The notes: generated from the letters alone by a model not told the origin. A stretch of 64,000 nt of DNA from Candidatus Omnitrophota bacterium (GCA_038222225.1 JBBRHV010000006.1:1626-65625); one strand, 5' to 3'; shown: positions 3 to 21,000, numbered from the stretch's first letter. Numbers and translations are program-made.

Positions 3-3000
3 TCTGATCAAAGGCCCAATTCTTCAGAGCCACTAGAAAACAATAAAGCGGTTGTTTCCAAGCTTCTGGCCGGGGTTGTGGTTCTGGTGAGCTTGGTATG
101 GCCGCTTGTTTTGTCCAAGGCCTTTGTATCAAAATATCTGGCGTTCACGCTTTGGGGCACATTGGGAGAAGGATATGTTTGGCAGCTCCTCACGTACAGT
201 TTTCTCCATACGAATCCTTTGCATTTGACCTTCAATGTGATCGCGTTTGTTTTCTTCGCGAATTTCATAGAGAGGGCAGTGGGGGTCAAAAGATTTTTGA
301 CTCTCTTTATCGGAGCAAGTGTTGCCGGAGCAGTCTTCCAGGTGCTGGCAATGGCCGCAAACAGTTTCACCTCGCCGGAATTAGCGGAGGCACTGGATAT
401 CACTCCTCTCATCGGACTCTCAGCAGTAGTAGCCGGGCTGATCGGAGCCTTCGGCGTTGTGCTGCGTGATCAGAAAGTGACATTCTTACTGTTGTTCATT
501 ATTCCGTTCCGCATCAAGGCGCAGCGGTTGGCGCAGATGTTGGTCACCGTCAGCATTGCGGCGATCATTTTCAATATAGTTCGCGGGGCCCAGGGCGGGA
601 TCGCCCACGGGGCGCACCTCGGCGGGCTTATTTTTGGTTGGGTTTATACGGAATATTTGCGGCGTGCAGGAAAGATCGATACGTTCATTATTGAAGAGGA
701 GAAACCCAAGGATCCTTCCGGAACCAACGCGGCGGTATTATCCAACTCAGATCCGGAAGGGGGAGTTGTTTCTTATCCGGCCCGTTCCAGCATCAGCGCT
801 GAAGAAAGGGAAGCAGCAAAACAGGGTACGGGCCCGGAAAATCTCAAGGGCTATGTCGTCAATTCACGGAAGATTCTGGGCGTTCCGGTTGAAGGTCTTG
901 AGATCAGTTATTCGGACCGCAGCGGACAAACAGTTGCTGAATATAAGCCGGGCCGTGTTGCCATTGATCTTTTGGGCCTTGGAGCCCGGGCGCCGCCGAT
1001 CGATCTCGAGCATTCTGCAAAATCCCGTCGCTTCCAGAGCATTATTCATGATGTTGTACGACAAATTATATTAGCTTCTCATTATTATGCCCTTTCAGAG
1101 AAAGATGTCCGTCAGGTTTCAGCCCGGCACTTTATCGGCCGGCAGCAAAAAGTTCAGAATTTTCTGGATCAGGAATTTAATCTTCGCGAATTCGGTCTGG
1201 TGTTTGATCCTGCCTATCTTGAGCTTTTAAGAAATTACCAGAGAATTGATCCTCAAATCGAAAGAATTAAAGAGCAGCTTGATCTCTTCAAGGGCGGGGC
1301 TGTGTCGTTTGAAGAGCTGTGTGAAGCTCTGGATGCGCGCGTTATTCTGAATGTGGCATCGCGTGCCTTATTTGAAGTGGGGAACAGTCCGTACCTGGTT
1401 AAAATTTACCGCGGCGGAACGCTGACGGCGAAGGCGTATGCCGCCGAAAAACAATTTTATAGAGAATATAACCCAACGGTCCAGCCGGAGCTGGTTTATT
1501 GTGATGACAATCTGCAGGCCTTGGTTGTGACGGATTTGAACCAGCTGGGATTGGTGCGCATGTTTGATTTTATTCAAGGGCCGTTCATTACGGAAGAATT
1601 GTTGGGTTGTTCGATTTCTTCCATGGCCCATGCCTTGGCGCAGCTGCATAGCAGCGCTGACGTGGCCTCGCAAACCGGTGAGCGGAAATTTGCTGAACTC
1701 AGGCATGAAGTGGACCGGGCGGTGGAGGTCTTAAGAGCGGCCGGGTTCCAAGGCCTTCCCGATGGAAAGAGCCTGGAGGATTTTCTTGCGCGATTCCAAG
1801 ATTCAGTAGTCGGAGAAAATGAACGATTGGTTCACGGCGATTATCTGATGTGGAATATTTTTGTTGACCCGGCAAGCGGAGAGGTGCGGGCCCTCATTGA
1901 CGGTGAGATGAGCGGTCTTGATTCTGCCGCTAAAGAGATGGCGAACACGATCCTGGGATTGATCGATGCCCGCAAGAATCATCCGTTCTTAATCAGTCAA
2001 ACTGCGGAGATGTTACGGTCGTTTTGGAGAGAATATATCCGGGAGACGAAAGACATTACCGGGCAGGAGATTTCTCCGGCGTTTGAGACTCGGGTCCATT
2101 TTTATTGCGCGGTCCAGTTGCTGATTGGCGCCAGAGTTGCGCATGAGAAATGGGCTAAATGGGCCCATTTCAGAATTGAGATGGCCAGGTTTTTCCTTAA
2201 TCAGGAAGCATTTTCATTGGAAGCTTTCATTGAGTTTTTGAATCATAATATTGGCAAACAACCGATCGGTTGGGTCGGGAATTTTGATGTTGCGACTCAG
2301 CACGGGCAGAGGCCGGGCTCGGGCGTTGAGATAATGATTGATGAAACAGGTTGGGCTGATTTCTTTGCCGAGGTTTGGGTTCCAGGAAACATCGGGGATC
2401 CGATTTTTGCATTGGGTATCGGAGCGGAATTACGTGTGACAAACAGAGACACCGGCGTTGTTTCGATTTGGAGGCCAGTGGAATTTTGTCATTTTGCGGG
2501 GAATAATTATCAATTTAGAGGAAGCGTGTTTTATCTCCAGGCGGGATCGTATGATGTGGAACCATCCTTCTCAGCGGATATGGGAGAAACGTGGTTTATT
2601 CCGCAACTCCCTTATGGCCCGTGTCATCTGACAGTGACAAAAGCATTGTCTGGGGAAGCGCCTTCAGAAAAGATAGTGAGTGTGGTCTTTTCTGACCTTC
2701 ACGGTGAGTTGAATGGTTTCCGTTCAGCGCTTGTAAAGCTCGGTATGATTTTACCGCAAAATAACCCGATGGAAGATATTTGGATTTCTCAAGATGTGAC
2801 GGTGGTTGTGGATGGAGATATCATGGATCGTGGTTTGCGACAGAAAGAGTTATACCACTATATCTGCCATCTCATGTTGACCGCCGAAGAAAGCCGTAAT
2901 CGGGTCATCTTTATCTTAGGAAATCATGAGCTGCTTCATCTTCAGGGGACTCCGGATGATTGGACAGCTCATGCGCTTACAGAAGTGATTAGAGAAGGTA

Positions 3001-6000
3001 TTCTTCGAGGAGATATTGTGGCAGCCGCGTATCTAGGTGGGCGTCTGATAGTTCATGCGGGAATTTTACCTTTTATTACCATGGATTTGATAAAGACATT
3101 ACGCCCAGGATTTTTGACTGTCGTTGCCCATCGGTCAGGAAAGTTCGTAAAGGATCTTACCGCGGTTGAAGTTGCCATCGAATTGAATAAAACACATAGC
3201 GTTCTTTCTGCTGACTCTATCGTGAATGAATTCAATCGGAGATTGCGGTTGGCGGTTGAGAAAGGCGATTATTCTGACGTTATTTTCCAGAGAGGGAACG
3301 CTCATTTTGGCGAGAACAAAAGGCCTGGAGAGTCGGGATATATACCCGGAGGCATATTCTGGGCAGACTATGAAAACGAATTGCGGCTGGTTGACCCGCG
3401 TGCGCTTATAGCGCAGATCGGAGGACATAGGGAGGGGAATGCGCTCCGTTGGACAAAGGGAGCCAGGGCTGTGAACGTCAATCTTTGTTATAAAGAGGGA
3501 TTTGGACGCAGCTCCGGAGTCGCTGTGTTTGATGGACAAAACTGGAAAGCTGTTTATTTTGATGGCCGGCCCATGCAAATTATTCCTGCTGTTATGGAGC
3601 GTGCTGTAAAACGACAGACAACAAATTCGGCAGCAGGTCAAGGCGGAACCAACGCGGCTGTTCTTGAGGGTGCGCCTTTTGAAGAACCGGAAACGGGTCG
3701 GATGAGCAGGCGAAGCATGCTGAAAATGCTGGCGCTGGCAGGAGCAAGCTTGCCGTTCATGACAACGACTGCTTTTGCTGATGAACCGACGGTTGATGAA
3801 GTTTTGACGGAACTTTTGAGCACTCAAACAGCGCATGGCCTCATTAAGAGTTTCAAGGGCACAACCGATACCTTCATGCAGAATCAGGCCGTGACCTATG
3901 ATCAGGCAGCCGCCGGGATCGCAGCTCTTGCGGCCGGAAGGACGGCGGAAGCGGTCAGGATTTTTAATTTCTTTTATAACCAGCATAATGGAGGAGATCC
4001 TGTCTGGAACGGGTTTGTGAATATGTATGATGCGACCCGCGGGGTCAAGGGCAACGAGCGCACGATCCACACAGGCCCGAACATCTGGATGGCGATGTTC
4101 AGCCTTCATCTTTATATGGCAAGCAGCGGTCAACAGGCCACGAAGGCCTTGACCCTTGCCAAAGCGCTCATGCAGTGGGCCAGGGGTTTGAATCATCGCG
4201 ATGGAGCGGTTGCCCTTGGACCGGTCCCCAATAATAATATTTTCTCAACAGAACATAACCTTGATTATTTCGCCTTCCTTAAAGGAATACAGTCGTTTTT
4301 GTCCGCGGCAGAAGCGGCGATCGTTCAAGCAGAAATGGACGGGGTTGGAACATGGTTAAAGACACATGCTTATGACCCGGCCAGAAGATTGTTCAAACGC
4401 GGAGCATATGAAAACCCGGTTGTCTATGCTACAGATACGTCAAGCTTTGCATTTTTATTGGGATCGCAGGTTCTGGAAGATTGGGGCATTGTTCGCTCAA
4501 CATTCATCGGCCAGTCCGATGCTGCCTATCGTGTCGGGACACGCGGTTTTGATGTGGCGAGTGTCGAGAACGCCAATTGGACCCCGCGTTCACGTTATGT
4601 CTTCAGAGAGTTTACTCTTCAGATGGCGGTAGGATTTTTGGTGATGGCTGATGATGAACACGATCGAGGCAATTTCACGCTGGAAAAAACGTATCGTGAT
4701 AAGGCTCAGCTCTATGCTTCTCAATCTGGCATAGATGGTGATTATCAATATTGTGAACAGACCGGGGTTCAGCTCTTTTATGATATTCCGAGCTGGAAAA
4801 CAATTAATGGTCAGTCGGCTTCGGTCATGGCCTGGAAGATATTTGCACTTCTCGGTTTCAACCCGTTTGGATTTGTTACAAAGGTGCGGCTGTCCGTCAG
4901 GCGTCTGGCGGCAACTGGAAATATGGAGTTGACTTTGCGCAAGGAAAGTATGGCGTCGCTCACTGCCGAGATTCTTTATTCAGATGACCTGGGAGATCAG
5001 AAAGAATGGAAGAGCGCCGGTTCAGTGGATTTGAGCGGCCTAAGGGCGGTTTGGGTCGATAACGGTTCTCAGACCACAACACATCCGTCGCAAAGCTCAA
5101 GGAGATTCTACCGAGTCTCGGCTGTAAATTCGTCTGTCCAGGGATTGGGCGCAGTCCATCAGGAGTCTAACGGTTTAGTGCCAGAGACGGTATTAATTGG
5201 GTCAAGCGCAGAGTATGGTCAAGAGTTCAAAGATGCGAATGCAGCAGTTTTGCAGGGGAAATTTGTTCAGACAGTGAAGACCAAAGGATCTGGGCTTAAT
5301 CGCTTTGACCTCGGGCGTTGGGGACGCGGGGCACTGCATTCAGTTCTTGCGCTAACACTGCTCACATCCGGTTGTGAGAAAAAAGAGGATACCCAGGGAG
5401 ATGCGTTGTCGGGAGTCGCGGTTCAGCCTGTTGATAGGAGCGCATTGGAGAACAGGATCAAGGAAGAGGTCCGGAAACTAGAGTATTCTGACAAGAACGC
5501 GGAGGATTTTGTAACGATGCTACGTCAATGGAAGAATGCTCAAGGCCAACCGGTTCTTACTGCGTGGGAGCAGAGCATTCTTAATGCCCGGAAACAATAT
5601 GAGCAGGGAGCCATGACAGCCGATCAGTTGGCCGGGATCGAAGCCGGGGTTGTTGGAGAAGTTGCGATGAGGATCGCTGAAGAATTTTCCGCGAATAATA
5701 ATGCTTTTGAATTGACCGATCTGATTGAAAAGAAACAGTCACAGTGTGTCAGCAGGTCAATGGCGGTAGCTATCGTCGGGAATGTACTTGGATTTAAGGT
5801 TGACTTTCTTGATGTTGATGCCAAGGAGATCAGGGCGATTGACGTTCCATTGGCGGAAAGAACTGTGGCGCATGCGGCCACCCTTGTACATTTGACCGGC
5901 GGGACCGTGATCATCGCCGATTCAGCGCTACGGTTTGTAAGCCGGCCGTTTTTAATGGAAGAAACCTACGCCGCAGTCGGGAACTATTGGGAACTTAAGA

Positions 6001-9000
6001 ACAGGAACGAACCGTTGTTGCTGCATGGACGAATCAGGAAGGCGTCTCTTTTAGCAGAGATTTATAACAATCGAGGCAACGCCTATGGAAGAGCCGGTCG
6101 TTATGAGGAAGCCTTCGCGCTGATGGCGAAAGCGATGGAAATCGATCCGGCATTGGCTGCAGCTTATTACAATCGGGGAGTTCAATATCAGGATCTAGGC
6201 CGGGTAGCCGAGGCAGTGGCGGACTATACAAAAGCGATCGAGCTTGATCCAAGAGATGCTGCTCCATATTGCAATCGGGGGAATATTTACAATACCGCAG
6301 GACGGGATGCTGAGGCTGTTGCTGATTATACGAAGGCCATTGAGCTTGATCCGCAATTAGCAGTGGTGTATTTCAATCGGGGAAATATTTATGGCAGATC
6401 AGATCGGCCAGAGGAGGCGATTGCGGATTTGACGAAAGTGATCGGGCTGAATCCGGAAGATGCCCAGGCTTATTACAGGCGGGCAGTGATTTACGGAAGA
6501 GTCGGTCAGTTAGAGAGCGCCAAAGCAGATCTCTTAAAGGTGCTGAATTTAAGTTCGGATGAAAAGCAAAAAGAACAGATCAAAGCTGCTGTTCGCAAGA
6601 TTGATGACATGCTTAAAGAAATGCCTAAGAAGAGCGCATCATCCAGCCACTCTGTTAAAAACGCTGAAACCAACGCAGCGATCCTTTATCCGTCACGCTT
6701 GGTGCCTGGACAAACGCCGGACTGGGCAATAAAATTCAGAACGACGTTGCCTAGCGATTTTGTTGAGGCGGCCGAGTCAGAGGATGGAGAGCAGGGCGTT
6801 GACAAGGTCATGTCGCTGGGGATTTGCCAGGATTCGCCGGACGTCTCGGAGCTTTTATCAAGATTTTATCGAGGATTGATGGAGAATAGCAACCCATCCG
6901 AGGTCCGCAGTCATTTGATTTATGACACGTGGTTAAAACTTAAAGAGAAGAAGATGGATGAATGGAACGCGACATTGGCGGTGTGGTTTACGTATGTGGT
7001 CTTTCAAAAAGCTTTAAGCATAGAAGCAAAACGATTAGCACAAAAGAATGCTCCGGCGCCTTCTGTTGAGGCATCCACAGAAGTCGCTACAGAACCATCT
7101 TCAAAAGGGCAGGAAGAAGGGGCGTCTGCCCGGGAAGATGAGCGTTACTTGGGGATTGTGATCGAGGTGGAAGGGTTTGGCCAGGTCACACTGACCGAAC
7201 GCATCGCCCGAAACAGCCGGACGCTTCTTTTTAAGACGAATCACCCTGGGCTTTTGATCAAACTTTTTGATCTGAACCACACCAGCATCGCCGGAGCCTT
7301 TGATCCGGTGATCGTCCAGAATTTTGAATTGGAACGCAATAATTTTGTCGAGGTCGCGAAGATCGATGAGCTGAGGCCGTATATTCCGCATTATTATCAG
7401 AGCGGCATCATCAAAGAGAGCAAGTACGCTTTCATCGCCATGGAATACATTGAAGGCACGGACTTAAAGAGCTGGCGGGAACAGGTTATTAACGGACGCA
7501 GTGAAAAGACTTTGACCGCCATTGAGTTCTGGCAGATGATGTCCCAGGCGATGAGCATTTTAAGAATATTCCACAAGTATGACCTGATCTTTTCTGATTA
7601 TAAACTTGAGAATATTCTAAGGCTGGCAGACGGACGTCTGAGGTTCGTTGATCTGGGAAGTGTTTTCCTTATTCATGGCTCGATCAAACCGCAGGATTTT
7701 CCGTATTCAGCAACAATGGAGGATTCGGAAGTTTTTGAAAACGCTGTCACTTTGAAGAACGGAAAGCCGCTGGCGAAAATTTCCGATATCTTCTGTGTGG
7801 GTGTGAGCCTGTTTGAATTCGCCACAGGCCAGGACCGTTTGACGCTGAGTCGTGAATATGCGGATATGCTTTTGACTCATTTACGCGTTATCAACCCGCG
7901 GATGTCTGAAACCCGGCTGTATTTTAATTATTATCCTCATCTTAAGGGAAAATTACCGACGCTGGAAGATCAGCTGCGTGAAGGATACGTCTTTTTTGCT
8001 GATTTTTGGCATTTGCTGCACGAAGTTCTTAAATATACCCAAGACGGTTATGAAGACATGGGACAGGCTGAAAAGGATGTTGTCCTGTTGTCGGCGGGGA
8101 TCGATTTTATCCGTAAGCAGCTTGGGCCTCTGGGCTGGGTGGCAGAGCCTGTTGCCCGGGCGACAGTTCTTAGACGCGTCCGGGTTGACAGTATTCATGA
8201 TCTGCTTTTGACGTTCCACAGCCCCTTGGGAGCGGAGGTCGTTGATGACCTTCGCCGTCACAACTGTTTTGTTGGTTGTGCTGAATCACAGTTCGGACAG
8301 CAGGGTTTCGTGGAACAGATGAGCACTTGGGACGTGCGTCTGAATTCGCACACTCAGCATTGGGCGGTCCAGGCGCCGGTCGCATTCAGGCATGATACAC
8401 AAGAAGCCGGTGCGTTGTTCTTGCAGCAGACCTACACGGATGAGGATGGCCATCGGTATTATCACATCACAAGCATGGAGGAGGCGGATGAATTGCCGAA
8501 CGGGGAAAAATTGACCCTGGCGCATTTGGAGGATGATCCGTACGCTTGGCTGGGAGCTCCATCGCAGGAAGATAATCAGGGTGGAAACTCTAAGAAAAAG
8601 CCTGTTCCAGCTCCTGAGAAAGAAAAGATAGTCATTGCGGGTAACGAAAGTGAGAAGCAGAAGAAAAAAACCAAAAGAAAATCCAGGAGGCAAAAGCTTC
8701 CAAAACCGACGACACGAGAGGAGGCCATCGCGTTGCTGATCCAAGCGGCCGGACGTGTTCCTTCGAACATTGCAAAAACCCCGCATCTTGTGGCCGACTT
8801 TTCACGCGGAGAGTTGACCGCAGCCAAGATCAAGAGCATGGCAAGGCAATGGGGGATTACGGGATATGATGTGCCGATCTCGAATTTGCCTTTTAGAGCG
8901 TATTCACGGAATGCTTCTTCAGACGAGCAAACAAATTCCTCTGTTCTGAACGAAGATATTTCAAAAACCGGACCTCCGCAGGGCTTTATTCATGTGGATG

Positions 9001-12000
9001 TCCATCCGGAAATTTGTTCGTTTAACGCCCTTGCTGAAGTTCAGCATCAATTTGGGGAGCTCACCACCATTGTTGTTGTTTATAGACGAGCCGCCGCTCT
9101 TCTTCAAAGGAAGCCGGTTTATGCCTCGCGTGAAAATGATATCATCATTCATTCCGACGGGATTATTTCTCAGGATCAGCTTATTTCGAAAATAAAAGGC
9201 CCTATCGCGCGCCTGTTGGTAACCGGCAATGAATTTGAAAGCTGTGTTGCCCGGGCTGTTTTTTCCATCAGAGAATTTATGCGGGATCAATATTCTGCCG
9301 GGTTTGTCTTGGATGTTCATTTTCCGATGGATTTGATCGTTGCCAATCGTCATGACTATCGCGATGGGGGATATCAAAAGATGATCGCGAATATAAAAGG
9401 CGGGGACTTTTTCTACAGCTATAAATTTCAAGCCCGTCGGATTGCCTATGACATCTATGATGGAACCGAACTGATCTGCCCTTGTGGGGAGGGAAGCGAA
9501 AATATTTCCAATCTTTATGTATGGCCATCTTTACAGAGCATGAAAGATGAATTAAGCCGAGGAACCGGCGGGACCAACGGGGCTGTTCTTGAATCAGGAG
9601 AGGGCGGCGCCTACAAGGAATTGATTTGTCGGTTTGACATGAAAGAAGATTATGAGGCGGATGATTGGAAGGAATCACGGGTTCTTAAGCGCGTGGCACT
9701 TATGAAACAGATCAGGTTGGGTTGGAAATATCCTCAGATGGGAGAACCGTCGGAACAATGGCTCAATGAGCTGAGAGAACTCGTTCTTCATCGTCTTTGG
9801 ACAAAGCTTCAAAAAGCACATCGTGGAGACATGTTTTTCCCTCAAGACATGGTTTCTCTCAATCGGTCGCTGAATCAGCCGTTTGTTTTTATCGTCGATG
9901 AACTTTTAAAGAACGCCCTTGATGCCCAGGCCTTGGCAGGGCAAAGCGGAAATGTCCATCTTGCGAGATCGTTGCAAGGCGGAACATTCGTGATGGCGGT
10001 TTCTGATAACGGAATCGGCGTCCGTCGCCCATTCTTAGGCTCAGAGCAGCTGGCTTGTATTGAGTCTTTGGCAGATCAGCAGAAGAGACGTAATACTCGT
10101 TTGGAAGCAAGTGATGGGGCTGGATTGATCTGGGTTCAGTATCTGGTCGCCATGCGGGGAGGTAAGCTTGAAGTCGAATCTCCCGGTCGCAATGAAGCCA
10201 GGACTACGGTTGTTGTGTCCTTGCCGGCGGATGCGTTAACGGTCATTGACAAGACGGGCTTAGGTTCTCAGACAAATGCTGCAGTCCTTCAAAAGAGAGA
10301 AGATGTCGCTACGCGGTTTATTTTTAGGTTAGCTGATCATTATGGTCTTTCTTCCACTTGTGATCCGCAGGAGATCCTTCAGGTTCTTCGTGCCAGGGGA
10401 ATCTTGAGTTCAGGGGAAGAAAGGGCGTTTGTCAGATATAGAAAAATTTTAAAACAGATGTATCCGGAGCTGAGCCTTGGGCAGGCTGAAGCACGCTGGA
10501 CGGAGGGCTACACATTTTTCGGGAATAATTCTTCTGAGGATTGGGAGCTTTCCGGACTGACGGAAGATTTTACGGTCATGGTTAAGAAACACATCGAAGG
10601 GATCCGGGCCGTTGAACACACCGATCATCCTGCGGATCAGGGCTGGTGGAAGGAAGATGGGCTGAAAATAAGAGTGATCCGGATTACGGATAGTCTTGAT
10701 TTAAAGGCGGCGTTACCGAACGAAAAAACAGAAAACCTGCCGCTGTCATCTGATGATGAAAACGGTTCACTGCACCTCTTTGAGTTTTTGTTCAAGAAGA
10801 TCTTTATTGAGCCAAAATATTTTGGCCTGGTAGCTTTCAAAGAAGGAAGGCCTGTTGGTGTATATGGGGTTTTTGTTTTAAATGATTGGAGAACGATCTC
10901 TGGGCGCGGATTATATGTCGTTCCATGGGAAAGGTATAAGAAAACAAATATCGGGTGGATGCTGGTCTCAAGGATGGCGGAATTGTTCGCGCTCAATGGC
11001 TATAAGTATCTTTATATCCCTGTGGCCAACCGTCCGTCGGCGCAGAAATTTTTTGAGAACGTGTCGGACAATACTGGACGCTTCCAGTTTTTCACAGAAA
11101 CAAAACGGAACGATGACGGAAAAATTCAAAAGGTTGCTGTGAAGCTGCAGGAAAGGTTCACTCCGGTTCAATGGGACATTGATCTTAAGCGTCAGATCGG
11201 CCAAGTCAACAGCGCGGTATTAAATACGAGCCTGTTGCAGCAGGTCCAAAATATGGAGGCAATGTTTAAAGCCTATGAATCGATTCTTAGTGACCATGGC
11301 CGACAGATACACGAGAGAGTTCGAGTGGTTTTAAGAGCAGCTTCTCAAGGCGTGATGAATGCAGAGCAGCAAAAAGAAGTTCGGGCGCTCGTGGCGTTGA
11401 TGCCTGATCCGCAGCATATTGATATTGAATCCGGCGGAGAAAAGAATTGGATCCGTTGGTTTGATTTAAGCCCGGAAAGACTGGGCGCATCTTTAGATCA
11501 AAGCATTGCCGATGGATGTGCGTGGCCGTGCCTGCATTGTGCGGCGTACAATGGCCATGCCAAAACAGTGATGGAGCCGCTTCCTGTTGTGATCGCAAAA
11601 ATTTTAAGCAGAACACAAACGGATATTATTTATCCATTCCAGTTCGATCTGATTTCTTGGCGGGATCTTTTCTTTGGAGTCGGCATTTCGGGATTAGCAG
11701 AGTTTATATCACGGTATAACCCGCAATATCAATTACGGTCATTGCCGACACGAGGTTGGGATAGCGATGATGCCTTTGTTCAGAACGAAGCCCTGCATCT
11801 TGCGCAGCTTAAAATCGCTAGTGGTATGTTCATTCTTTCATTCCATCTGTGCCATCAGCGGTATGACATCTTGCCGGCTATTGCGCAGGCGGTCAGGAAC
11901 GGAGACCGTGCAGAACTCGATGCACTGATCGATGTTTATGCAGCACGTTATGCGAATGTGATCGCTACGTTAAGTCCTGCGCTTGATCGGGTCAGCGTAT

Positions 12001-15000
12001 TTTTACCCGGAGATGTATACGCTCCCGTCTTTGAAGAGGCGACGATCCGGGCATTGAAAAAAGTGTTGAGCATCTTAAACGCTTCGCATGAAGAGATCAA
12101 GCCGCTTGTTGGTGAGATCAGTCATGGGGTCCTTGGGATCCGGGATATGAGATTTTTAAACATCGGCGGAAGGCAGATTTCGTTTATTTCTCGAACGATC
12201 CAACACGACGGCCGCGGGCGTGACTTTTTGGGACGATTGTGCATGGCTGAAAGCGGGGATTTGAACGGCAGGAAGGCGAATATGAATTTGCTTCGCATGG
12301 TCAAAGAACATGGCCGTCCGTATCCGGTTTCTGTCCTGTTTGCCTCTGGACGAACGATTGTCCAAACGCCGCAAGTCAACAGCGCGGTGCTTTTGACCGA
12401 ACCGCTGAGAAAAATGTTCCGCGCATTGAAACCGTGGCTGGTTATCGGCGCCGTTGCTGCCTGGGTGGGTTTTGAAAGAATGAATGCGAATCTCTTTTCT
12501 GGCCCTGAAGGGGGCGCGCATGAGAAATGGATCTTTCTCGACCTTGTTTTAGCCGCCGGTGTTATTGAAGAAATTCAATACAGGTTTGGCGTGTACAGGC
12601 ATGTCTTGAGGCCTTATTTCGGCGTTGTGCTGTCAGTCATCATCAGTTCTTTAGTTTTTGTGGCGGTCCATCTGATCTTTGCGGATGGGACCTTGATCGG
12701 TTTAATATATGTCCTGTTGTTTGGTGTAATTTCTGCCTTGATTTATGAAACCAGCGGCAAGCTGCGCTACGCTATTCTTCTGCACATGATCTCGAACTTG
12801 ATTTGGATCGGCATGAGCGCCGGTCCGTTTGCATATTTTATATTCACGGTCTCGCTTATGGCGCTGATGAAATTAAGCTTTGTTCTATTTATCTTCTATC
12901 ATACGGTCATCGCTGGCGTTAATGAGAGAGGAATCAAGGCCTTTGAACGTTTTGGAAAAACTGATTCGATTGATGAATGGTTAGGTCAAAAAGTTATCAG
13001 ACCGGCGGTGGCTGTGATTAAAAGCCGATGGGCAAAACTTGGCATGAATAAAATGTGGCGAGCAAAAAGCCCGGATGGAAAAGAACATCGCCGCATATAT
13101 GCTTTGGCATTCACAATCAGTGGATTGATCCTGACCTTGCAGTTTGCCGGAGACAGGATGTTCAGATTGTTCTATCCGGTCTCGCCAAGACCTTTGATCA
13201 CTCAAGAAGAGATGCGACAGAACATTCAGCGGGAGAGGGATAAGTTTGAAGCAGCAAAACGTGCCGCCCTCGCACAGACGCCAGGACTCACCACCAATGA
13301 TATTTTTGGTGTGATGTATTCTTACAAAGCGGATCTTTCATTGATCCGGGTTGTTTTATTCCATGACGGTCGCGCATACAGCGTGGAGGTGACATCGTCA
13401 GGTGAGACAATTGTCGATCCGGTAGCGTTATCATGCTACGAGGGCATTCTTACGCTGTTATTTTCCGACGGGCATATGGACAGACATCGTGAACTTCCTT
13501 TAAACGAACGGACTTGGAATGAAGTTGAAGCTTGGAAAAATAGATTGCCTCAAAAACCTGCACCTAAAGTACGGTCGAAACAGGGCGCGCAAAATTCATA
13601 TCATAAATTCAATACAGCGAGTTTGTACAAAGGGGTCAACAGCGCGGTGTTGTTGGGTTACTCGGATAAAGAAGCGTGGAACAAAGAGTCCGGGTTTTTG
13701 CTGGATACATTTTTTACATTTGAGCAGTATGTCGCGGCGGCTTTATATGATCCGGCCTGGGGATTTTATGGCAGTGGGAAGATCAAACTAGGGTTTGATT
13801 TCGGAACCATGCCGATCGCGCTGTCGCCGTTTTTCGGAGAGAAGGTCGCTGAGCGTGTGTACGAGATGTATATCGGCATGCTGAAAGCCGGTACCATCAG
13901 GCCGGATGAGCCGTTTTACATGATCGAGTTTGGGGCGGGAACCGGCGTGTTGGCAAGGGACGTACTGGCATTCTTTAGAGAACAAGCTAAACGCGGACGG
14001 GTTTATAAACGATTCTATGACAATTTGCATTATGTGATCAGCGACCGATCTAGCCCGCTGCTGGAAAAACAAAAGCAGAAGAATGCGGAGTTCTTGGAGG
14101 AAGGCAAGATCCAGTTTGTGATCGGCGATGCTCAAGAGCTTGAAACATTCTTGGAGAAAGAGCGTCCGATCAAGGGAGTTGTATTCTCCAATGAGCTTTT
14201 GGATGCCTTCCCGTCCCATAAAGTTTACATGGATGAACAGGGAGTGGCACATGCCATGGTCTCGATACCGGCTCTTGTCGATCAGCACAGTCCTGATCTC
14301 AGGCCTGGCAGCAGAGGCCGCCTATCGTCAACGATCAGCTTGTTGGCGCAAGTCGGAAAGGTGCTTAAGGCCCACGGGCTTTCGCTTGAAACATTAACTC
14401 AAAAAAGCCGTGAGTTCGCAGGGCGGTCGAATGTAGTCAAACAGATGGTGGATGATGGGGCCGTTGTTTTAAGTCGGGAGGATTTCTGCCGTATCCAGGA
14501 AATTTTCTCCGGTGAGAAAGTCAGTATGTATCGCGAGCTTATCCACAGGGTTATGGCGTTCTCTGAGATGACGGTTCCCGCGGCGCTGGTGCCCGGTTTA
14601 AAGGAATATTTAGATTTCCACAAAGATGAAATGAGGACGGCCCTTCAGGGAGAGTCAGGATGCGCAGTTGTCTCTTCCGGGTGGCTTTCGTTTGCAAAGC
14701 ATGTTTCCGGTTTGATCGATCAGGGATATGTCTTTACGATCGATTATGGAGAGACTACGGCGACATTGTTGAGCGCCAGGCGCAGAGAGAATTTTCCGAT
14801 TTCGATCTATCATCGACGTTTGGGAAGAGAGCGCAATCCTTATCTTCACCCTGGTGATGTGGACATATCGGTTGCGCCGGATTTCACGGTCTTTGCCCAG
14901 GCGGGGCTTGTTCATGGCTTGGTTCCGGTTTATCACGGGGAGCTCCGGTTCTTGCAGGCAGATTCAACCGAAAGGATTGACTCCGCGCAAACCGCTTCAC

Positions 15001-18000
15001 GGGTTAAGCGGCTGTTTACCCAGATGGCGATCGAGGCCAATATTGAAATTAATGCTCTTCGAGCACATGGATTTTCGGGTGATCAATCTCAGAGCATCGC
15101 TGCTGCGATGGAGCGTTATTTTAAAGAGGGTCGCCAGCCTGCGCCGGGAGAGCTTGACGCTAAAGCTCAGGCGGAATTTGACAGCCTTCTTCAATTCGGA
15201 CGTAACGATGCCGATGACAAATATCCTATCTGGGTTGAGCGTTTCTTGCATTCATCCGGGCATAAGATCTTGATCCAGCAAAAGGCGGGCACAGATCCAC
15301 ATTATTCGTTTGGCCAGCCGATCTTGCCGCTGTTTCAGGTGAAGCCCAAGACATCTTTGGCAGTTTCGAATGATTTTATCGGAACAAATTCATCCGTGAT
15401 CGACGATCAAAAGGTTGTTGTTGATATCCGCAGCCTGGCTGAAGATGCCTACGATGAAGCGTTTGCCACACGCCATTCGAATTATAGACGTCATGACTCC
15501 CATCGAGTCCATCATTGCGAGGTCAACACCAATATTTTGCAGGGATTCCTTCAGCTAAAAGGATACAGGGCTATTCAAGTTTTTCATACACCAAAAGGTG
15601 AACCGCAATATTTTGTTATGTTTATGGTTAACGGTGAGGTTTGGGTTGCTGAGCCAACTTGGCAGCTCATGATTCCTGAAGAGAATCGCACTGATGATCT
15701 TCCGCATTGTCTGGTTTTCAAAGAAGCGGATCTTGAGAAAATCATGCAACAATTCGGTATTGTTGAACATTGCCGCGTAAGTTGGCGCAAATCGGTGAGT
15801 GAGAATCGAGACAAACTATTTGAGACCGGGACAAGGGATTCTCTTGGGACGAACGGATCGGTTTTAAATTCAGGCATAACAGGTGTTAAAAAAGGAATAG
15901 GGTATGTGAGTTCGCTCTGGCAAAGGATGCGGCATGGGCGCGCAGACTCTTTTGATCTTCATCAGATGGAGGCTGCCTTCGGATTGCATGTTTTGGGACG
16001 GTTCCTTCGCCGTCGCCCAACGGTTCTGGTGATTCGCGGGAAGGGGCCGTTAAGCGGGCTGCAGGTTCTGGCAGAGGGCTTGGCCGCTCAAAAGTATAAT
16101 GTTGTTCTGTTCAATTATGATTACAGATTGCCGATCAGACAACTAAGCGCTTCGCTGATCGCAGCCTGGAGAGTATTCCAGAAGGCCCATCCACGGCGGA
16201 CGGAGTTTGGGGTGGTGGCGTATTCTTACGGGACAACAGTTCTTCGTTTGGCTGTGGTGAAATCGTTAGATGAGGTCTTCAGAGAGGGGCACATCATTGA
16301 GCTGGCACCGCTCTTGGGCGGATCTAGGAGCGCCTTGAGCGCATCGACGCCGGAGGGGATTGCCTTGGCGCGGTCTTCCGGCAAAGCGGATATGATCCAG
16401 ATAGGGAAGGCCTTGGATCCGAATGGTGAGTTCCAGGCGGAGTTGTTTAATGAAATCAATATTGGATTATATGAGGACCGGTTCAGCCGTGCTTCGCGTT
16501 TTGTGATTATCGCCGAAGGAGATGAACTTGCGCCGCGCCTGGACCGCCGGCCGGATCATTTCACGCGAAGGTATCAGGAGAATCTCGGAGAACATGTCGA
16601 AGTCCGTATTAAGCGGCAGCCGCATGATGCTTTGCCCTCAGAGCCTGCGGCGGTTACAAAAGTGATCGAGCGGTTGAACTCTCGACTTAGACCCGGTGTC
16701 GATACCGCTGAGAGAAAAGCAGACGGCCGTCAAGGGAGAGACATCAATAGCGCGGTGTTGTCCTCTGGGGCTGAGCCGGATTTTTCTTTCGACAAAACAA
16801 TTTCGCCCGATGTTCATCGTGCCAAGATTCGTTATGTAAGCCAAAAGAGAATCGCTCAGGATATGTCACGCACTAGCCATGACCGGGTTCGGGCTAAGGA
16901 AGCCTATTTGCTTGCAGTTCGCGATACGGCGATCAATTTAGCCCGGGCTAGGGATGAGCGGGTCGCTGCTGTACTGCGGAAAATATGTGATACGATCGTG
17001 GTTCGTGCCGGCCCTATGAAATATTTATTGGGGGCCTACCGTTCAAAAGAATTGTTCCTTGATGAATCTCTGCTTTCTGATCCTCAACAGTATTATGAAT
17101 TAATTCTCACATTATTGTATGAAGCGCGAGCGATTGCTTACCCGGCAGGTTTTAATGCGGAAAATGAGGGGTTTGCCCAAGATTGTTTGGTCAACGGGCT
17201 TATTCCAGAACGGATCCATCCGCGCACCGCCAAAGAGCGTCAAAAGATCGTGGAGGCGCTCAAGCTTTTACCAAAAATTCAATCCCCGGTGAATTATCTT
17301 TTAGTCGTGCCGATGTATAAGGAAATGTTCCGTTTGAGTCCTGAGGGCGAAGACGCGTTGCGGCGCAAGGTTTTGGCCATGGCTGTTCTGCATCGGTTGA
17401 ATCCGAATTTGAACGGCCGCATGCTTCTGGTTGATGACGGAACTCCATCCCTGGCATCTGAGGCGTGTGCCCGTGAGATTTGGCGTCAGATCCAAAAGGA
17501 ATTCCAGGCTCGCGGCGAGGTACTGGATCCGGAAGCCGTTACGTTTGCCCATGTCTCCGTTGAGGAAAAGAAAAGCAAGAAGAGCAGAAAAGGATGGGCG
17601 GTTCTGCGGGGGATGCGTTTGGCGCTGGAGCAGGGATGGGCAGATTATATTGGTTATACCGATACGGATATTTCAACAAATCTGCTTCAGATGCCGTTTA
17701 TTTTATGTCCCCTGATCGAGCGCACGGCTGACGTTGCGATCGGATCCCGTTGGGCCAGCGGCGGCAAACAGGAAGGTGTTTCGTTTAGACGGATGGTTTC
17801 AAGTAAAGTCTTTAATATGGCGGTTCATATGTTTCTGCCGGTTTTGTGGCGGATCAGGGATACTCAGCGGGCGTTTAAATTGTTTAACCGGTCAGTATTA
17901 AGAACCATTTTGCCGTATGCCAAGGAACCCGGCTTAGCGATTGATACAGAGCTATTAACACTTGTCCGTATCGCCGGACGGAAAATCATTGAAGTTCCTA

Positions 18001-21000
18001 TTGCATGGATTGATTCTGCCGAGGCAAGTACGATCGATCTGGGGAAGTCTGCCAAAGAAATGCTTTTGGCAATTATGCTGCAGTCGCGCCATATGTTCGA
18101 TCTCAGGCTGATTTTGAATCTTCGGCTTGCAGAGAGGCTGAACCCTGAAAGGAAAGGAACAGATCTCGAGGTTAATAGCGCTGTTCTGGATGCAGAGAGT
18201 TTAAGTTGGAGTGGCTTCATTGAATTTGAACATGCCGGAATGAAACTGCTGGCTATTCAACGCAAGACAGAAGGGCTTGCCGGACGCAGCCTGGCCCGCG
18301 CGAGTATCGAAATTTATCAGCTGATCAGAGGTGTTTCTGAGCCTGCGCTGACCGGATTTGTTGACGTCTGGTTCCGGGAAGACCGAACAGCGGCGGTCCA
18401 TAAAGAATTTTCTTGGAATGATTATTATGCCTTAGGTGTCTTGGGACATGCCCATGGGCCGTTGAAATTAGGTTATTCTTTAGACGGGTATGATACTGTC
18501 TGGAGCTATGGCGAACGCCGGTTTCTGGTTGGGGAAGACCATCCGGCCTTGTGGGTCCATGCGCAATCACGCAATCAGGGGTTAGGGAAGGTCCTGTTTG
18601 GGGCCGCAGCCGAACTGGCCCGCTTGCGCAATTGTCATCTGCTTCGTGTTGAAGAATGCCAGACAGGCGGGCGCAGTCTGTATAGACAGTTTGTTCCGGC
18701 GGATCAACAGCAAAATATTGACGGATCTTCGGTCGTGCTTCAGCTGCAAGGCCGTGATGCACAAAAGACGGGTGAATCTCAAAAGGAAACGAATGCGTCG
18801 ATTTCTGGCGTTGAGGCGGAGCATAACAGTTCGGCTGGGATGCAGGAAAGGTTGGCAAGACTTTGTGAGGAGGCCCTTCATCAAACAGTTTTCCCTGTTC
18901 GAGGCCAAAGCACGGAGGATGTGAAGCGGCTTCTTATCGAGGCGGATAAACAGACGCATAGTATTTTCAGATTCCATTTGGCAAGACTGGTTCTGGCAGA
19001 ATTAGGCCGTTGTTGTTCAGGGGCTAAAAAAGGATGGATCTTCGGTGATGTCGGGGAAGGAACACTTGATCGGATCGGTCCGTTGGGCGATATTGATCTC
19101 ATTATCGGAGTCGCGACCGAAGAAGATAAAGTTGGCGCGGCCCAAAATTTAGCGAGCATTAACGCGTATGTGACGTACTGGTTAAATAAGCTGCAGCATA
19201 CCAAAATAGAGGAGCTCATTGAAACAAGGAATGCGAAAAGAATTTTAACATTGGCAGAGATTGAGGGTAACCCGTTCTATATCCACAATGTCGACAGTCC
19301 TGCTTCGCTTCTTTTTGATGCCGAAACAATTTCAGATGTTCGACGCGCAAACGGATCTGAGTCTGCCGAGGCCAACAGCGCGATCCTGAATCGAGAGGAC
19401 GCGCTGGCCCGGCTTCGCAATCCGGATTATGTTGAGCCGCAAGAATTGACCAGCACCGATCTTTTGGGGACGTGTGAAAAAATCACGCGCTGCACAAATA
19501 CAAGAGTTCAATGCTCATTTGTTCCTCATCAGCAGCATGCTCCCGGAGGTGTCTATGTTGCGGCAGGCGTTGCGCAGACAGCAAGGATGACGGCAACGGG
19601 GCAGGTGCATACACAGACTCAATTTGAAATCACGATCAGGGCAGGTCAAAGAGAGGACATGAAACATGTTTTGCGCATGATCTTAGAGAAGCTGGTGCGT
19701 TTGAGGGATAAGGTGGCTCCGGAAGCATTGGACGCCTTTGATGTTCTGGCGCAAAGAAAGGCCGCCGACATTTCTCTTCATGCCGCAGAGGGAGAATCGG
19801 CGCTTAGGTGGTCACATATGATCGGGCTTAAGGTTGAGGCGGAGAAGCATTTTAATCATGTGCCGGTGAGCATTCAGGCAGATGTGATCTTGACTACGAT
19901 GCCCCGGAGGGAGGCGGCACAGCGTTTGGTTGTTAAATTAAGTCAGGAACAACGGTTTATGATATTGGCTCCGACCGGGTTAAGCCCGCGGGAGATTGTG
20001 GATCAGCTTCTTGCGAAAGAAACCGTTGAGGAGGCAATTAAAAATATCTTGAGGAAAGGGATCCTTCGCGGGATTCATGCCCATGATGATATCCGAAAAG
20101 CGTTTCAGGGCAGCGGGATTTTATGTGAAGCGCTCGTGTCGGATGCCAGGGTCAACCGGATCCATATTTTCAGCGTGCCCAAAAGGATCACGGTTTTAAA
20201 AAGTTATCACTCAACGCCGGAAGATGTGTGGGACGCTTTGCGCCGGGAGAAGGGGCTTAATAATCAGCTTCAGGCGGATTTTGCTGAAAGCGTTCATTCT
20301 CAGATTGCCGCTGATATAGTCATGCGGCGTTTAGGTTTGTGGCGTCTAAAAGAAAAGAAAGACGGGTCTCTGTTTAGAGTCTTAACCCGTTTATTCCGGT
20401 TGAGGCGTTCGTCTTACGGTTTGGCCCAGGCCAGGGAAGACGTGGCACACATCAATTCCCAAATGGCAGGATCTGTTGCAGACTCCCTGACGTGGGTTTC
20501 GGCACCAACATATTTCTTGAGTCTTTCTGATGAGGAACGCAAGGGCCTTGAGGAGGAGATCAAATTTCAACTTCGAAAATTTGGGCCGAAGGCTGTTGAC
20601 CAGGAAGAATTTCAATTGAAATTGAGAGAGTCGATCGCGCAGCGTTGGAGAATCCAGAAGGGGATGACGCCGGAAGAAGTTTTTGACCAATGCGCGCTGT
20701 ATTGGATCGTGGAAGTTGCAAATAACTTCATTCCGAAATTCAATGCCATGAGGTCACGCTCAGAGCGGTTTGAATTTTTGAAGGCCCAGCTTCCGCAGTG
20801 GTATCCGGCGTTGGTAGAGACGTTAGATTCTCTTCAGAGTTTATTAAATGACGGAAGTACATCTTTTGATGTTCGACAGCAGATAGGAACACTGGGCATC
20901 TCAGTTGCGGAACAGGACCTTTTATCAAAAGCATTTTTAGATGAATTTGGGTTTGTGCTGCTTTTGGGACAGTCCGCTCAGGGAACAAAGTCAGATTTAT

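Follow-up and report, generated by a model that had tools for sequence, protein, structure and literature searches.

The window analysed here is a stretch of 64,000 nucleotides (nt) from a Candidatus Omnitrophota bacterium (GCA_038222225.1 JBBRHV010000006.1:1626-65625). It features a giant open reading frame (ORF) that encodes a protein made up of 49 modules, with a short hexapeptide motif at the junctions between them (Table 1). The first copy of this motif, TNAAVL, is encoded by ACC AAC GCG GCG GTA TTA (codons 216-221) and lies 25 amino acids (aa) past the last transmembrane (TM) helix of module 1, a rhomboid protease. The site was singled out in an initial annotation of the window, and the motif proved to be real, as it is the first of ~48 copies in the giant ORF. 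Modules were defined by cutting after each motif Leu, and they have a median length of 337 aa with a range of 19-1078, sizes comparable to those of ordinary bacterial proteins. The frame of the giant ORF continues without a stop to nt 3, which places the true start upstream of the window. Alignment with free-standing rhomboids indicates that the rhomboid is probably the first module and that only a short N-terminal tail is missing.

The junction hexapeptide and its constraint

The consensus of the junction hexapeptide is [TAVIS]-N-[AS]-[AS]-V-L. The strict pattern N[ASG][ASG]VL is found in 35 copies in the giant protein, compared to a mean of 0.19 (maximum 3) when its residues are shuffled 200 times. 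Allowing conservative variants (Val to Ile, Leu to Ile, Phe or Val, and Asn to Ser) brings the number of junctions to 48, and a position-specific scoring matrix built from the strict copies identifies 49 sites at or above 8 bits where 1.2 are expected. The motif is specific to the frame of the ORF, which contains 44 matches, with 0-2 matches in each of the other five frames. When the Asn is counted as position 0, this position is Asn at 45 of the 48 junctions and Ser at three. It is followed by Ser (26), Ala (20) or Gly (2) at +1, Ala (35) or Ser (13) at +2, Val (42), Ile (5) or Leu (1) at +3, and Leu (43), Ile (2), Phe (2) or Val (1) at +4. Position -1 is occupied by Thr (20), Ala (10), Val (10), Ile (4), Ser (3) or Gly (1), and position -2 foremost by Gly (18), Glu (9) and Gln (6); the information content of the alignment is at background by -3 and by +5. 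The residue classes given in the initial annotation, which were T/V/A/I/S/G and A/S/G at -3 and -1 in signal peptidase numbering together with a near-invariant Asn, a Val and a Leu, match the counts over the 48 junctions.

The codons of the motif cover all synonymous families, including Ser as TCN and AGY and Leu as TTR and CTN, and their usage is roughly that of the whole gene, with four of six codon tests being unremarkable. The other two tests revealed a skew at Ala(+2), where GCG is used in 16 of 26 cases compared to 8.9 expected (p = 0.026, uncorrected), and at Val, where GTA is used 7 times (2.6 expected) and GTC twice (7.7 expected; p = 0.009, uncorrected). Both p-values are non-significant after correction for six tests, and the skew may be an effect of dinucleotide context. 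Because synonymous codons vary freely, the constraint acts on the peptide and not on the DNA. An origin at the DNA level, in which the motif would reflect the translation of a cassette-shuffling recombination or insertion site, would account for the gain and loss of modules at motifs (see below) and for the slight skew at the two positions. It is nevertheless a very unlikely explanation, given that both types of Ser and of Leu codon are used, that the skews do not survive correction, that the motif is confined to the ORF frame, and that no repeat structure is needed for 15 nt.

Two further roles of the motif were considered and ruled out. Internal translation starts are ruled out because the Val and Leu codons are mostly not GTG or TTG, and an N-glycosylation sequon is ruled out because most copies read N-S-A or N-A-A and not N-x-S/T. 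No description of NSAVL, NAAVL, NASVL or NSSVL as a motif was found in the searchable literature.

Module borders, relatives and exchange of modules

The motif respects the borders of recognizable domains, as none of the 48 junctions is located inside a Pfam domain match (21 matches; chance ~8e-4). Each unit is bordered by a linker in which the motif is the only conserved element. On either side of the motif, 10-15 residues are strongly hydrophilic, the motif itself forms a small hydrophobic island, and the flanks at -15 to -2 and +5 to +18 are enriched in disorder-promoting residues (0.71 and 0.67, respectively, compared to 0.54 overall). This composition suggests that the linkers are probably flexible. 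AlphaFold 2 (AF2) assigned no confident structure to the motif, with a predicted local distance difference test score (pLDDT) below 50, both next to the core of the CPBP protease in module 10 and in the loop between modules 20 and 21. An example of the spacing is the junction between modules 30 and 31, which lies ~28 aa past the end of the PALP match and ~25 aa ahead of the AlaDh domain. Only three small paralog groups occur among the 49 modules, and the internal paralogs (modules 9, 39 and 35; modules 20 and 49) begin at an equal distance from the upstream motif.

A metagenome scan with conserved peptides from the alignment of modules 20-21 and 49 yielded a sole locus, L001 (ENA ERZ795055 NODE_178, a 77-kb metagenome contig of which 13.3 kb was compared). 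One open frame of 4,442 aa spans the L001 stretch and contains 13 motif copies, and two partial NCBI proteins from Candidatus Omnitrophota bacterium are 99.9-100% identical to this frame. The only other protein match is 45% identical and comes from a metagenome-assembled genome (MAG) of Candidatus Omnitrophica (L002, 8.3 kb compared). Since close homologs come only from Candidatus Omnitrophota MAGs, the lineage is assigned to Omnitrophota. No relatives were found in the GTDB species representatives by scans with modules 1-2 and with the alignment of modules 20-21 and 49, and modules 17-21 had no match among 5.8 billion proteins. The rhomboid module has only free-standing rhomboids as homologs, and an exhaustive HMMER search with the CPBP module returned distant CPBP proteins only, and the one long protein among them (P0034, 2,609 aa) shares just the CPBP core and lacks the junction motif. 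In L002, a scaffold gap, seen as a run of N at 2556-2643, divides an evidently single ORF into two called genes (851 and 1,885 aa), and the downstream part features three repeats of a 'beta-strand + [LI][VI]HE' unit.

The modules of the window are 50-82% identical in amino acid sequence to those of L001, and synonymous sites are saturated. The ratio of nonsynonymous to synonymous substitution rates (dN/dS) between the giant ORF and its L001 ortholog is ~0.1-0.16, a value obtained with saturated dS, and it indicates that the giant ORF is a real coding sequence under purifying selection. An assembly artefact or a non-coding ORF is ruled out by the existence of the ortholog in combination with dN/dS ~0.1. 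At 11 matched junctions, the Asn, Val and Leu are each kept at 10 and Ala and Ser interchange freely at +1 and +2, while the flanks of these junctions are just 30-45% identical.

The window ORF and L001 are collinear and differ by whole modules. Modules 17-18 of the window are missing from L001, L3 (a paralog of module 23) and L7-L9 of L001 are missing from the window, and module 25 is replaced by the unrelated L12 in L001. For modules alignable at both ends, the homologous region ends 0-20 residues from the motifs, and end-to-end alignments pair residues 1-185 of L2 with 1-186 of module 19, 2-201 of L10 with 2-201 of module 23, and 6-364 of L11 with 6-364 of module 24.

The comparison also provides candidate cases of loss and gain of a site. 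In L001 a TNASVL site is followed by L7-L9, while the window features TNASVN, a remnant of ~60 aa and then an intact ANSSVL, and TNASVN is read from this comparison as a decayed site beside lost modules. There are three further near-perfect sites in which only the Leu is lost: ANAAVS, TNAAVQ and VNSSVQ. The junction between modules 20 and 21 reads KLS-GGVNAAVL-VPDRMGK, whereas the paralogous module 49 (KLS-MAEADRMGK) and the orthologous L4 (KLS-VAGADLMGK) contain no motif. This site is most simply explained as a gain in the lineage of the window by an insertion of 4-6 residues. Tandem sites, 13-24 residues apart (19-30 aa from cut to cut), are present both in the window ORF and in L001.

Possible functions of the motif and candidate enzymes

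We favor, with moderate confidence, a role of the junction hexapeptide as a peptide-level processing signal for an endopeptidase, located at the borders of gene-equivalent units in the giant ORF. This reading is preferred because the peptide is reiterated in flexible linkers and only at the borders of exchangeable gene-sized units, and because the motif is kept while the linkers drift, was apparently created de novo once and seems to have decayed where it was redundant. As in viral polyproteins, the same short motif marks the boundaries of independent units, here with 48 sites, complete enzymes and whole-cassette differences. The chain would be translated as one polyprotein, and one sequence-specific endopeptidase with access to the cytoplasmic face would bind the motif and cut between the two small residues or beside them, so that ~49 proteins, both soluble and membrane-bound, would be freed in a fixed ratio. 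Three bonds are candidates, namely N↓[AS], [AS]↓[AS] and [AS]↓V. Polyprotein sites usually have small residues around the scissile bond. Under the N-end rule, Ser, Ala and Val N-termini do not trigger degradation and Leu is an N-degron residue. All three candidate bonds would leave Ser, Ala or Val at the N-terminus, so the products would not be subject to N-end-rule degradation, whereas a cut at V↓L would leave an N-degron Leu on nearly all of them. The Asn to Ser variants are found only at the junction between modules 16 and 17 and on either side of module 46. By analogy with suboptimal sites in viral polyproteins, these three junctions could be slow or inactive sites.

The initial annotation stated that four known rules fit the junctions and that none of them could be decided from sequence. 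The general idea that the junctions serve either cleavage or docking is the one favored here, but the fit of the four rules fails when the junctions are tested for membership in the respective classes, and the sequence decides more than was claimed. The clearest case is type I signal peptidase, which cuts after small residues at -3 and -1. The residues at -3 (T/A/V/I/S/G) and -1 (A/S/G) do match this rule; however, an h-region is present at 0 of the 48 junctions. No 10-residue stretch in the 25 aa upstream has a Kyte-Doolittle mean above 1.79 (none reaching 2.0), and the median of the site maxima is 0.24 compared to 0.88 at random positions. The linkers are hydrophilic, the rule leaves the invariant Asn, Val and Leu unexplained, and the neighboring modules are cytoplasmic enzymes (APH, Pkinase, HATPase_c, GNAT, methyltransferases, AlaDh, PALP and HTH). 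These neighbors need ATP, acetyl-CoA, S-adenosylmethionine, nicotinamide adenine dinucleotide or pyridoxal phosphate (PLP), or bind DNA, and most junctions should therefore be cytoplasmic, which is at odds with the periplasmic exposure that the rule entails. Cleavage by signal peptidase is rejected as having next to no likelihood. The register x-N-[AS]↓[AS]-V-L stays attractive for a different, soluble class of enzyme, by analogy with birnavirus VP4.

The second rule concerns the rhomboid in module 1, an assignment that holds, as the Pfam match is strong (Table 1) and the catalytic Ser, His and HxxxN are retained in an alignment with free-standing rhomboids of ~287 aa. The free-standing homologs have a C-terminal extension past the core and also carry PF20216; in the window, the junction and module 2 are found instead. 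Rhomboid active sites open to the outer face of the membrane. Cleavage of the junctions by this rhomboid, at N-[AS]↓[AS]-V-L or [AS]-[AS]↓V-L, would be consistent with an enzyme that appears catalytically intact and is translated first, and with the small P1 and hydrophobic P2' that occur at all 48 junctions in both registers. The published rhomboid motif consists of a small P1, a large hydrophobic P4 and a hydrophobic P2', and the TM domain of the substrate is needed even for a site outside the membrane (Strisovsky et al. 2009, PMC2941825). Like those substrates, the junctions have the P1 and P2' residues, and they share a chain with a rhomboid. Unlike those substrates, a hydrophobic P4 is found at 0/48 in the register that was proposed initially (where P4 is G/E/Q/A/D), although V or I occupies P4 at 14/48 in the register [AS]-[AS]↓V-L. 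A TM-like segment occurs within 40 aa downstream at 7 junctions and upstream at 1, and 41 of the 48 have no adjacent TM domain. Most junctions flank cofactor-dependent enzymes in linkers that would be cytoplasmic, and the rhomboid motif does not explain the invariant Asn, which makes this an improbable mechanism.

The third rule, self-cleavage at N↓[AS] by an asparagine peptide lyase or by intein-like succinimide chemistry, agrees with the Asn that precedes a small residue at 45/48 junctions. A dedicated fold that positions the Asn is a requirement of known Asn lyases. In the giant protein the upstream modules have unrelated folds, and three small paralog groups among 49 modules do not provide a common scaffold; both AF2 models predict an unstructured motif, Ser replaces Asn at three junctions, and no His stands ahead of the Asn, unlike the HN of inteins. 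Self-cleavage is considered very improbable.

The fourth rule was taken from the MARTX toxins, in which unrelated effector enzymes are freed by cleavage after Leu in inter-domain linkers. A release of this type, with a cysteine protease domain cutting at V-L↓x, is suggested by the Leu at 43/48 junctions, which lies in a hydrophilic inter-domain linker and is the last conserved position before a sharp drop in conservation, and by the architecture of a chain of effector-like enzymes. The four sites in which only the Leu is lost (TNASVN, ANAAVS, TNAAVQ and VNSSVQ) fit an essential Leu and are silent on the bond that is cut. Against this, no Peptidase_C80 or other clan CD domain is found in any module of the window (Pfam E<=1), the residue after the Leu is small (G/S/A) at just 12/48, and 11 of 48 products would begin with an N-degron residue (L, F, Y, K, R) after such a cut. 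The Leu in the linker thus agrees with the rule and the C80 domain is not found, and such a release is judged highly doubtful.

The remaining alternative is that the motif is not cleaved and serves as a docking motif in flexible linkers for a common partner, such as a scaffold, a chaperone, a secretion or insertion factor or another part of the chain, which would organize an intact megadalton protein. The motif resembles typical linear motifs in being a short hydrophobic stretch between disordered-type flanks, the conservation is symmetric with a strong 'prime-side' Val and Leu, tandem copies could add avidity, searches of the chain identified no cognate protease, and AF2 gave a weak beta tendency for one copy (E439-442, low confidence). 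A docking role is harder to reconcile with a motif that occurs only at the borders of gene-sized units and never inside the multi-domain modules of ~1,000 aa, with gain and loss of whole modules that follow the motifs, with the apparent decay of one of two adjacent sites after module loss, and with the two intact proteases in the chain. It is regarded as unlikely on balance, though it deserves serious consideration.

If the hexapeptide is a processing site, the enzyme could be one of the two intact proteases embedded in the chain, the rhomboid of module 1 and the CPBP protease of module 10. Module 10 is a candidate processing enzyme of the CPBP/Rce1-like type. The motifs EExxxR, FxxxH and HxxxN are present as VIEEIQYR, FVAVH and HMISN, and an alignment of 81 sequences shows that E79, E80, R84, H113 and H151 are invariant and that F109 and N155 are at least 90% conserved. 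The AF2 model has a core pLDDT of 86-97, and a Foldseek search of this model against the PDB returned nothing significant. Module 42 is, more weakly, a candidate as a putative zincin; its two HExxH motifs are ~100 aa apart, the second one (AHEWTHIF ... DEFLAD) resembles a gluzincin signature, and searches of Pfam and the PDB with the module returned no match. An enzyme from another locus of the genome is equally possible, such as a Ser/Lys-dyad protease that processes soluble polyproteins by a small -3/-1 rule. For most sites, the N-terminal rhomboid ranks last among the candidates. No further protease was found among the orphan modules by Pfam at E<=1, NCBIfam or PDB sequences.

Several observations weigh against a processing site. 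No protease of matching known specificity was identified in the chain, in which about half of the modules are orphans, AF2 left the flanking motifs undocked in the CPBP active site, and cleavage at the motif is purely inferred. A strong prime-side Val and Leu with an invariant Asn would be equally expected of a non-cleaved binding motif. The site between modules 20 and 21 is located in a loop between helices with moderate AF2 confidence on either side, so a cut there might split one folded unit; this AF2 model, made with 3 sequences, is mostly of low confidence (pLDDT 44). Modules 21 and 49 each have a single TM helix, which makes the topology of some junctions uncertain. Additionally, L002 (2,735 aa, 45% identity in module 22) contains zero copies of the motif and reads RAGHTDQ where the others read RTNASVL, which means that the motif is lineage-specific and not general to the giant proteins of Omnitrophota.

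Content of the chain and comparison with known systems

The giant protein contains ~20 distinct Pfam domain types across its 18,937 aa and ~40-49 TM-like segments by crude hydropathy counts. About half of the modules are orphans with no match in Pfam at E<=1, NCBIfam or PDB sequences. Downstream of the giant ORF are genes for an HMGL-like enzyme, KDPG aldolase, a PMT_2 glycosyltransferase, a radical SAM enzyme, MnmA and MutL. With these ordinary chromosomal genes in its flanks (MnmA, MutL, KDPG aldolase), the giant ORF is regarded as chromosomal.

Table 1. Position and content of the giant ORF, its modules and its junctions (nt of the window).
Feature	Position	Strand	Motif or assignment	Remarks
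Giant ORF	78..56891	+	18,937 aa, ~2.1 MDa	49 modules, junction motif between them
Module 1	78..740	+	Rhomboid intramembrane serine protease	Pfam PF01694, E=3.7e-23
Module 2			APH kinase plus metallophosphoesterase	Pfam
Module 4			TPR	Pfam
Module 5			Protein kinase	Pfam
Modules 7, 40			HATPase_c	Pfam
Module 8			GNAT	Weak match below Pfam cut-off
Module 9	11223-12392			Paralog of modules 39 and 35
Module 10	12393..13652	+	CPBP / Rce1-like intramembrane protease	Pfam PF02517, E=1.2e-12
Modules 11, 44			Methyltransferases	Pfam
Modules 15, 23, 46			GNAT	Pfam
Module 21	23265-23861			Single TM helix
Module 22	23862-27095			Best conserved module
Module 25			HPr	Pfam; behind block of ~9 TM helices
Module 30			PLP-dependent enzyme (PALP)	Pfam
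Module 31			Alanine dehydrogenase/PNT (AlaDh_PNT)	Pfam; two domains in single module
Modules 30-31	32970-35507			
Module 34			HTH	Pfam
Module 35	38823-39215			Truncated paralog
Module 39	43401-44612			Paralog of modules 9 and 35
Module 42	46203..48908	+	Orphan	Two HExxH motifs (aa 15940, 16038); internal decayed junction ANAAVS
Module 46			SEC-C motif	PF02810, E=2.2e-9
Module 49	56085-56888			Single TM helix
Junction 1/2	723..740	+	TNAAVL	Codons 216-221
Junction 2/3	3648..3665	+	TNAAVL	
Junction 3/4	5235..5252	+	ANAAVL	
Junction 4/5	6669..6686	+	TNAAIL	
Junction 5/6	8931..8948	+	TNSSVL	
Junction 6/7	9573..9590	+	TNGAVL	
Junction 7/8	10272..10289	+	TNAAVL	
Junction 8/9	11205..11222	+	VNSAVL	
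Junction 9/10	12375..12392	+	VNSAVL	
Junction 10/11	13635..13652	+	VNSAVL	
Junction 11/12	15384..15401	+	TNSSVI	
Junction 12/13	15849..15866	+	TNGSVL	
Junction 13/14	16743..16760	+	INSAVL	
Junction 14/15	18171..18188	+	VNSAVL	
Junction 15/16	19371..19388	+	ANSAIL	
Junction 16/17	21003..21020	+	TSASVL	Asn to Ser variant; L001 = TNSSVL
Junction 17/18	22155..22172	+	TNASVI	
Junction 18/19	22350..22367	+	TNASIL	
Junction 19/20	22908..22925	+	TNAAVL	
Junction 20/21	23247..23264	+	VNAAVL	Absent in paralog module 49 and in L4 of L001
Junction 21/22	23844..23861	+	SNASVL	L001 = TNASVL
Decayed junction inside module 22 (putative)	26877..26894	+	TNASVN	L001 = TNASVL, then three modules missing from window
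Junction 22/23	27078..27095	+	ANSSVL	
Junction 23/24	27681..27698	+	ANSAVL	L001 = ANAAVL
Junction 24/25	28773..28790	+	SNSAVL	
Junction 25/26	30411..30428	+	VNSSVL	
Junction 26/27	31239..31256	+	TNAAVL	
Junction 27/28	31296..31313	+	TNAAVL	Tandem; 19-aa mini-module 27 between the two
Junction 28/29	32346..32363	+	VNSAVL	
Junction 29/30	32952..32969	+	TNAAVL	
Junction 30/31	34107..34124	+	ANAAVL	PALP enzyme / AlaDh_PNT enzyme
Junction 31/32	35490..35507	+	TNSAVV	
Junction 32/33	36768..36785	+	SNSSVL	
Junction 33/34	37269..37286	+	INSAVL	
Junction 34/35	38805..38822	+	VNSSVL	
Junction 35/36	39198..39215	+	VNSSIF	Weak variant, doubtful
Junction 36/37	40206..40223	+	ANASVL	
Junction 37/38	40269..40286	+	TNAALL	Tandem; 21-aa mini-module 37 between the two
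Junction 38/39	43383..43400	+	VNSAVL	
Junction 39/40	44595..44612	+	GNSAIL	
Junction 40/41	45372..45389	+	ANSAVF	
Junction 41/42	46185..46202	+	ANSAVL	
Decayed junction inside module 42 (putative)	46959-46976	+	ANAAVS	
Junction 42/43	48891..48908	+	ANSAVL	
Junction 43/44	49704..49721	+	INSAVL	
Junction 44/45	52383..52400	+	INAAVL	
Junction 45/46	52596..52613	+	TSAAVL	Asn to Ser variant
Junction 46/47	54570..54587	+	TSSAVL	Asn to Ser variant
Junction 47/48	55056..55073	+	ANSAVL	
Junction 48/49	56067..56084	+	TNAAVL	

Some modules have features of their own. Module 22 is by far the best conserved, with 82% identity to L001 (~3300-6330) and 45% to L002 (1-2750). It opens with a basic flank and a TM hairpin, has no match in Pfam, NCBIfam or PDB, and may represent a core function of these giant proteins. 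Modules 9, 39 and 35 form a paralog family inside the ORF. A CxxxCxxC motif, possibly a radical-SAM-like cluster, is common to modules 9 and 39 (CAWPCLHC and CTEPCLHC, respectively), and module 35 matches only the part ahead of this motif. A weakly similar Cys motif is found at the start of P0034, which is an unrelated protein. In modules 21 and 49, the TM helix is located near the C-terminal end and is followed by a strongly basic stretch (RKRQGRGGKGR and YPGRRRP, respectively). The positive-inside rule would place the soluble domain of these modules outside the cell, yet no signal peptide is present there. The PLP-dependent enzyme of module 30 adjoins the alanine-dehydrogenase/PNT-type enzyme of module 31, an operon-like adjacency within one ORF.

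The giant ORF is a member of the Omnitrophota giant multi-enzyme proteins, of the Archaeovorin type or class 1. Like these proteins, it is an Omnitrophota ORF of >10,000 aa with many distinct Pfam families (HATPase_c, GNAT, methyltransferases, TPR, kinases and metabolic enzymes), TM helices and embedded peptidases. For the Omnitrophota giants, processing by embedded peptidases (C39, S8) has been speculated, and the cleavage points were stated to be unknown (West-Roberts et al. 2023, bioRxiv 10.1101/2023.11.21.568195). In a survey of class 1 'multi-enzyme metabolic clusters', the terms motif, linker, junction and cleavage do not occur (bioRxiv 10.64898/2026.06.07.730766). Neither study reports a motif at junctions. 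The protein described here differs from the reported giants in its junction motif, in having a rhomboid and not C39 or S8 as its N-terminal protease, and, compared to 'most' giants of West-Roberts et al., in the lack of a SecA_DEAD match, with only a SEC-C motif being found.

The giant ORF differs from viral polyproteins, MARTX toxins and polyvalent proteins in scale, content and genomic setting. Birnavirus VP4, which uses a Ser/Lys dyad, cleaves at AxAAS and TLAA↓D sites (PMC4457844). The birnavirus polyprotein resembles the giant protein in its unrelated units, its short reiterated motif, the small residues at the presumed bond and the suboptimal variants, and [T/A]-x-A↓A is similar to [T/A/V]-N-[A/S]↓[A/S]. 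Alphavirus nsP2, 3C/3CL and potyvirus NIa are further viral proteases with reiterated sites. In contrast to the viral polyproteins, the giant ORF is a cellular chromosomal gene with ~48 sites instead of ~2-15, and polytopic membrane proteins are numerous among its modules; searches detected no viral protease homolog, and an Asn at P2 with V-L at P2'-P3' is foreign to these viral motifs. The MARTX toxins are likewise very large bacterial proteins with chains of unrelated enzymes, but the giant protein has no C80, no RTX repeats and no evident logic dependent on inositol hexakisphosphate, its 48 sites are uniform where MARTX has few, loosely defined Leu sites, and housekeeping-type enzymes and membrane proteins are among its modules. 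Phages and conjugative elements encode polyvalent proteins with an embedded zincin-like metallopeptidase that is predicted to autoprocess them (Iyer et al. 2017, PMC5512222). These polyvalent proteins share with the giant protein the many unrelated enzymatic domains in one polypeptide, and the HExxH motifs of module 42 are a further similarity; they have 2-15 domains, belong to mobile elements and lack a defined junction motif, whereas the giant protein has 49 modules and is chromosomal.

The CaaX system is relevant to module 10. CaaX boxes such as CAIL, CSIM and CAIM define residue classes at a1, a2 and X, and the active site of Rce1 opens to the cytoplasm. The presence of an intact CPBP protease and the tail of the junction motif, [AS]-[VI]-[LIF], which falls in the aaX classes, are in line with this system. 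Unlike in CaaX substrates, where a prenylated Cys is found four residues from the C-terminus, there is no Cys (A/S stands ahead of [AS]-V-L) and no prenylation, and the motif is internal and not C-terminal. To our knowledge, the substrates of bacterial CPBP proteases are largely unknown. More tentatively than the processing role of the hexapeptide itself, we propose that some Omnitrophota giants may be true cellular polyproteins, in which a set of ~49 proteins is encoded in one ORF and cut at a lineage-specific hexapeptide by an in-chain protease, with CPBP favored and acting on internal 'aaX-like' sites, and in which cassettes are exchanged at the motif, as a bacterial counterpart of the viral strategy.

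Omnitrophota are characterized by giant ORFs of 10,000-150,000 aa, and it is an open question in published work whether their products exist as a single megadalton chain or as cut pieces. The junction motif offers an objective criterion for dividing the giant protein into units, useful in annotation and structure prediction. It also predicts a few precisely defined neo-termini that can be checked in metaproteomes, and serves as a handle for finding the protease through gene co-occurrence across genomes. If cleavage is confirmed, the giant ORF would encode the largest known cellular polyprotein, and it would represent a new gene-expression strategy for ultra-small cells, in which one promoter and one start site provide dozens of proteins in fixed stoichiometry.

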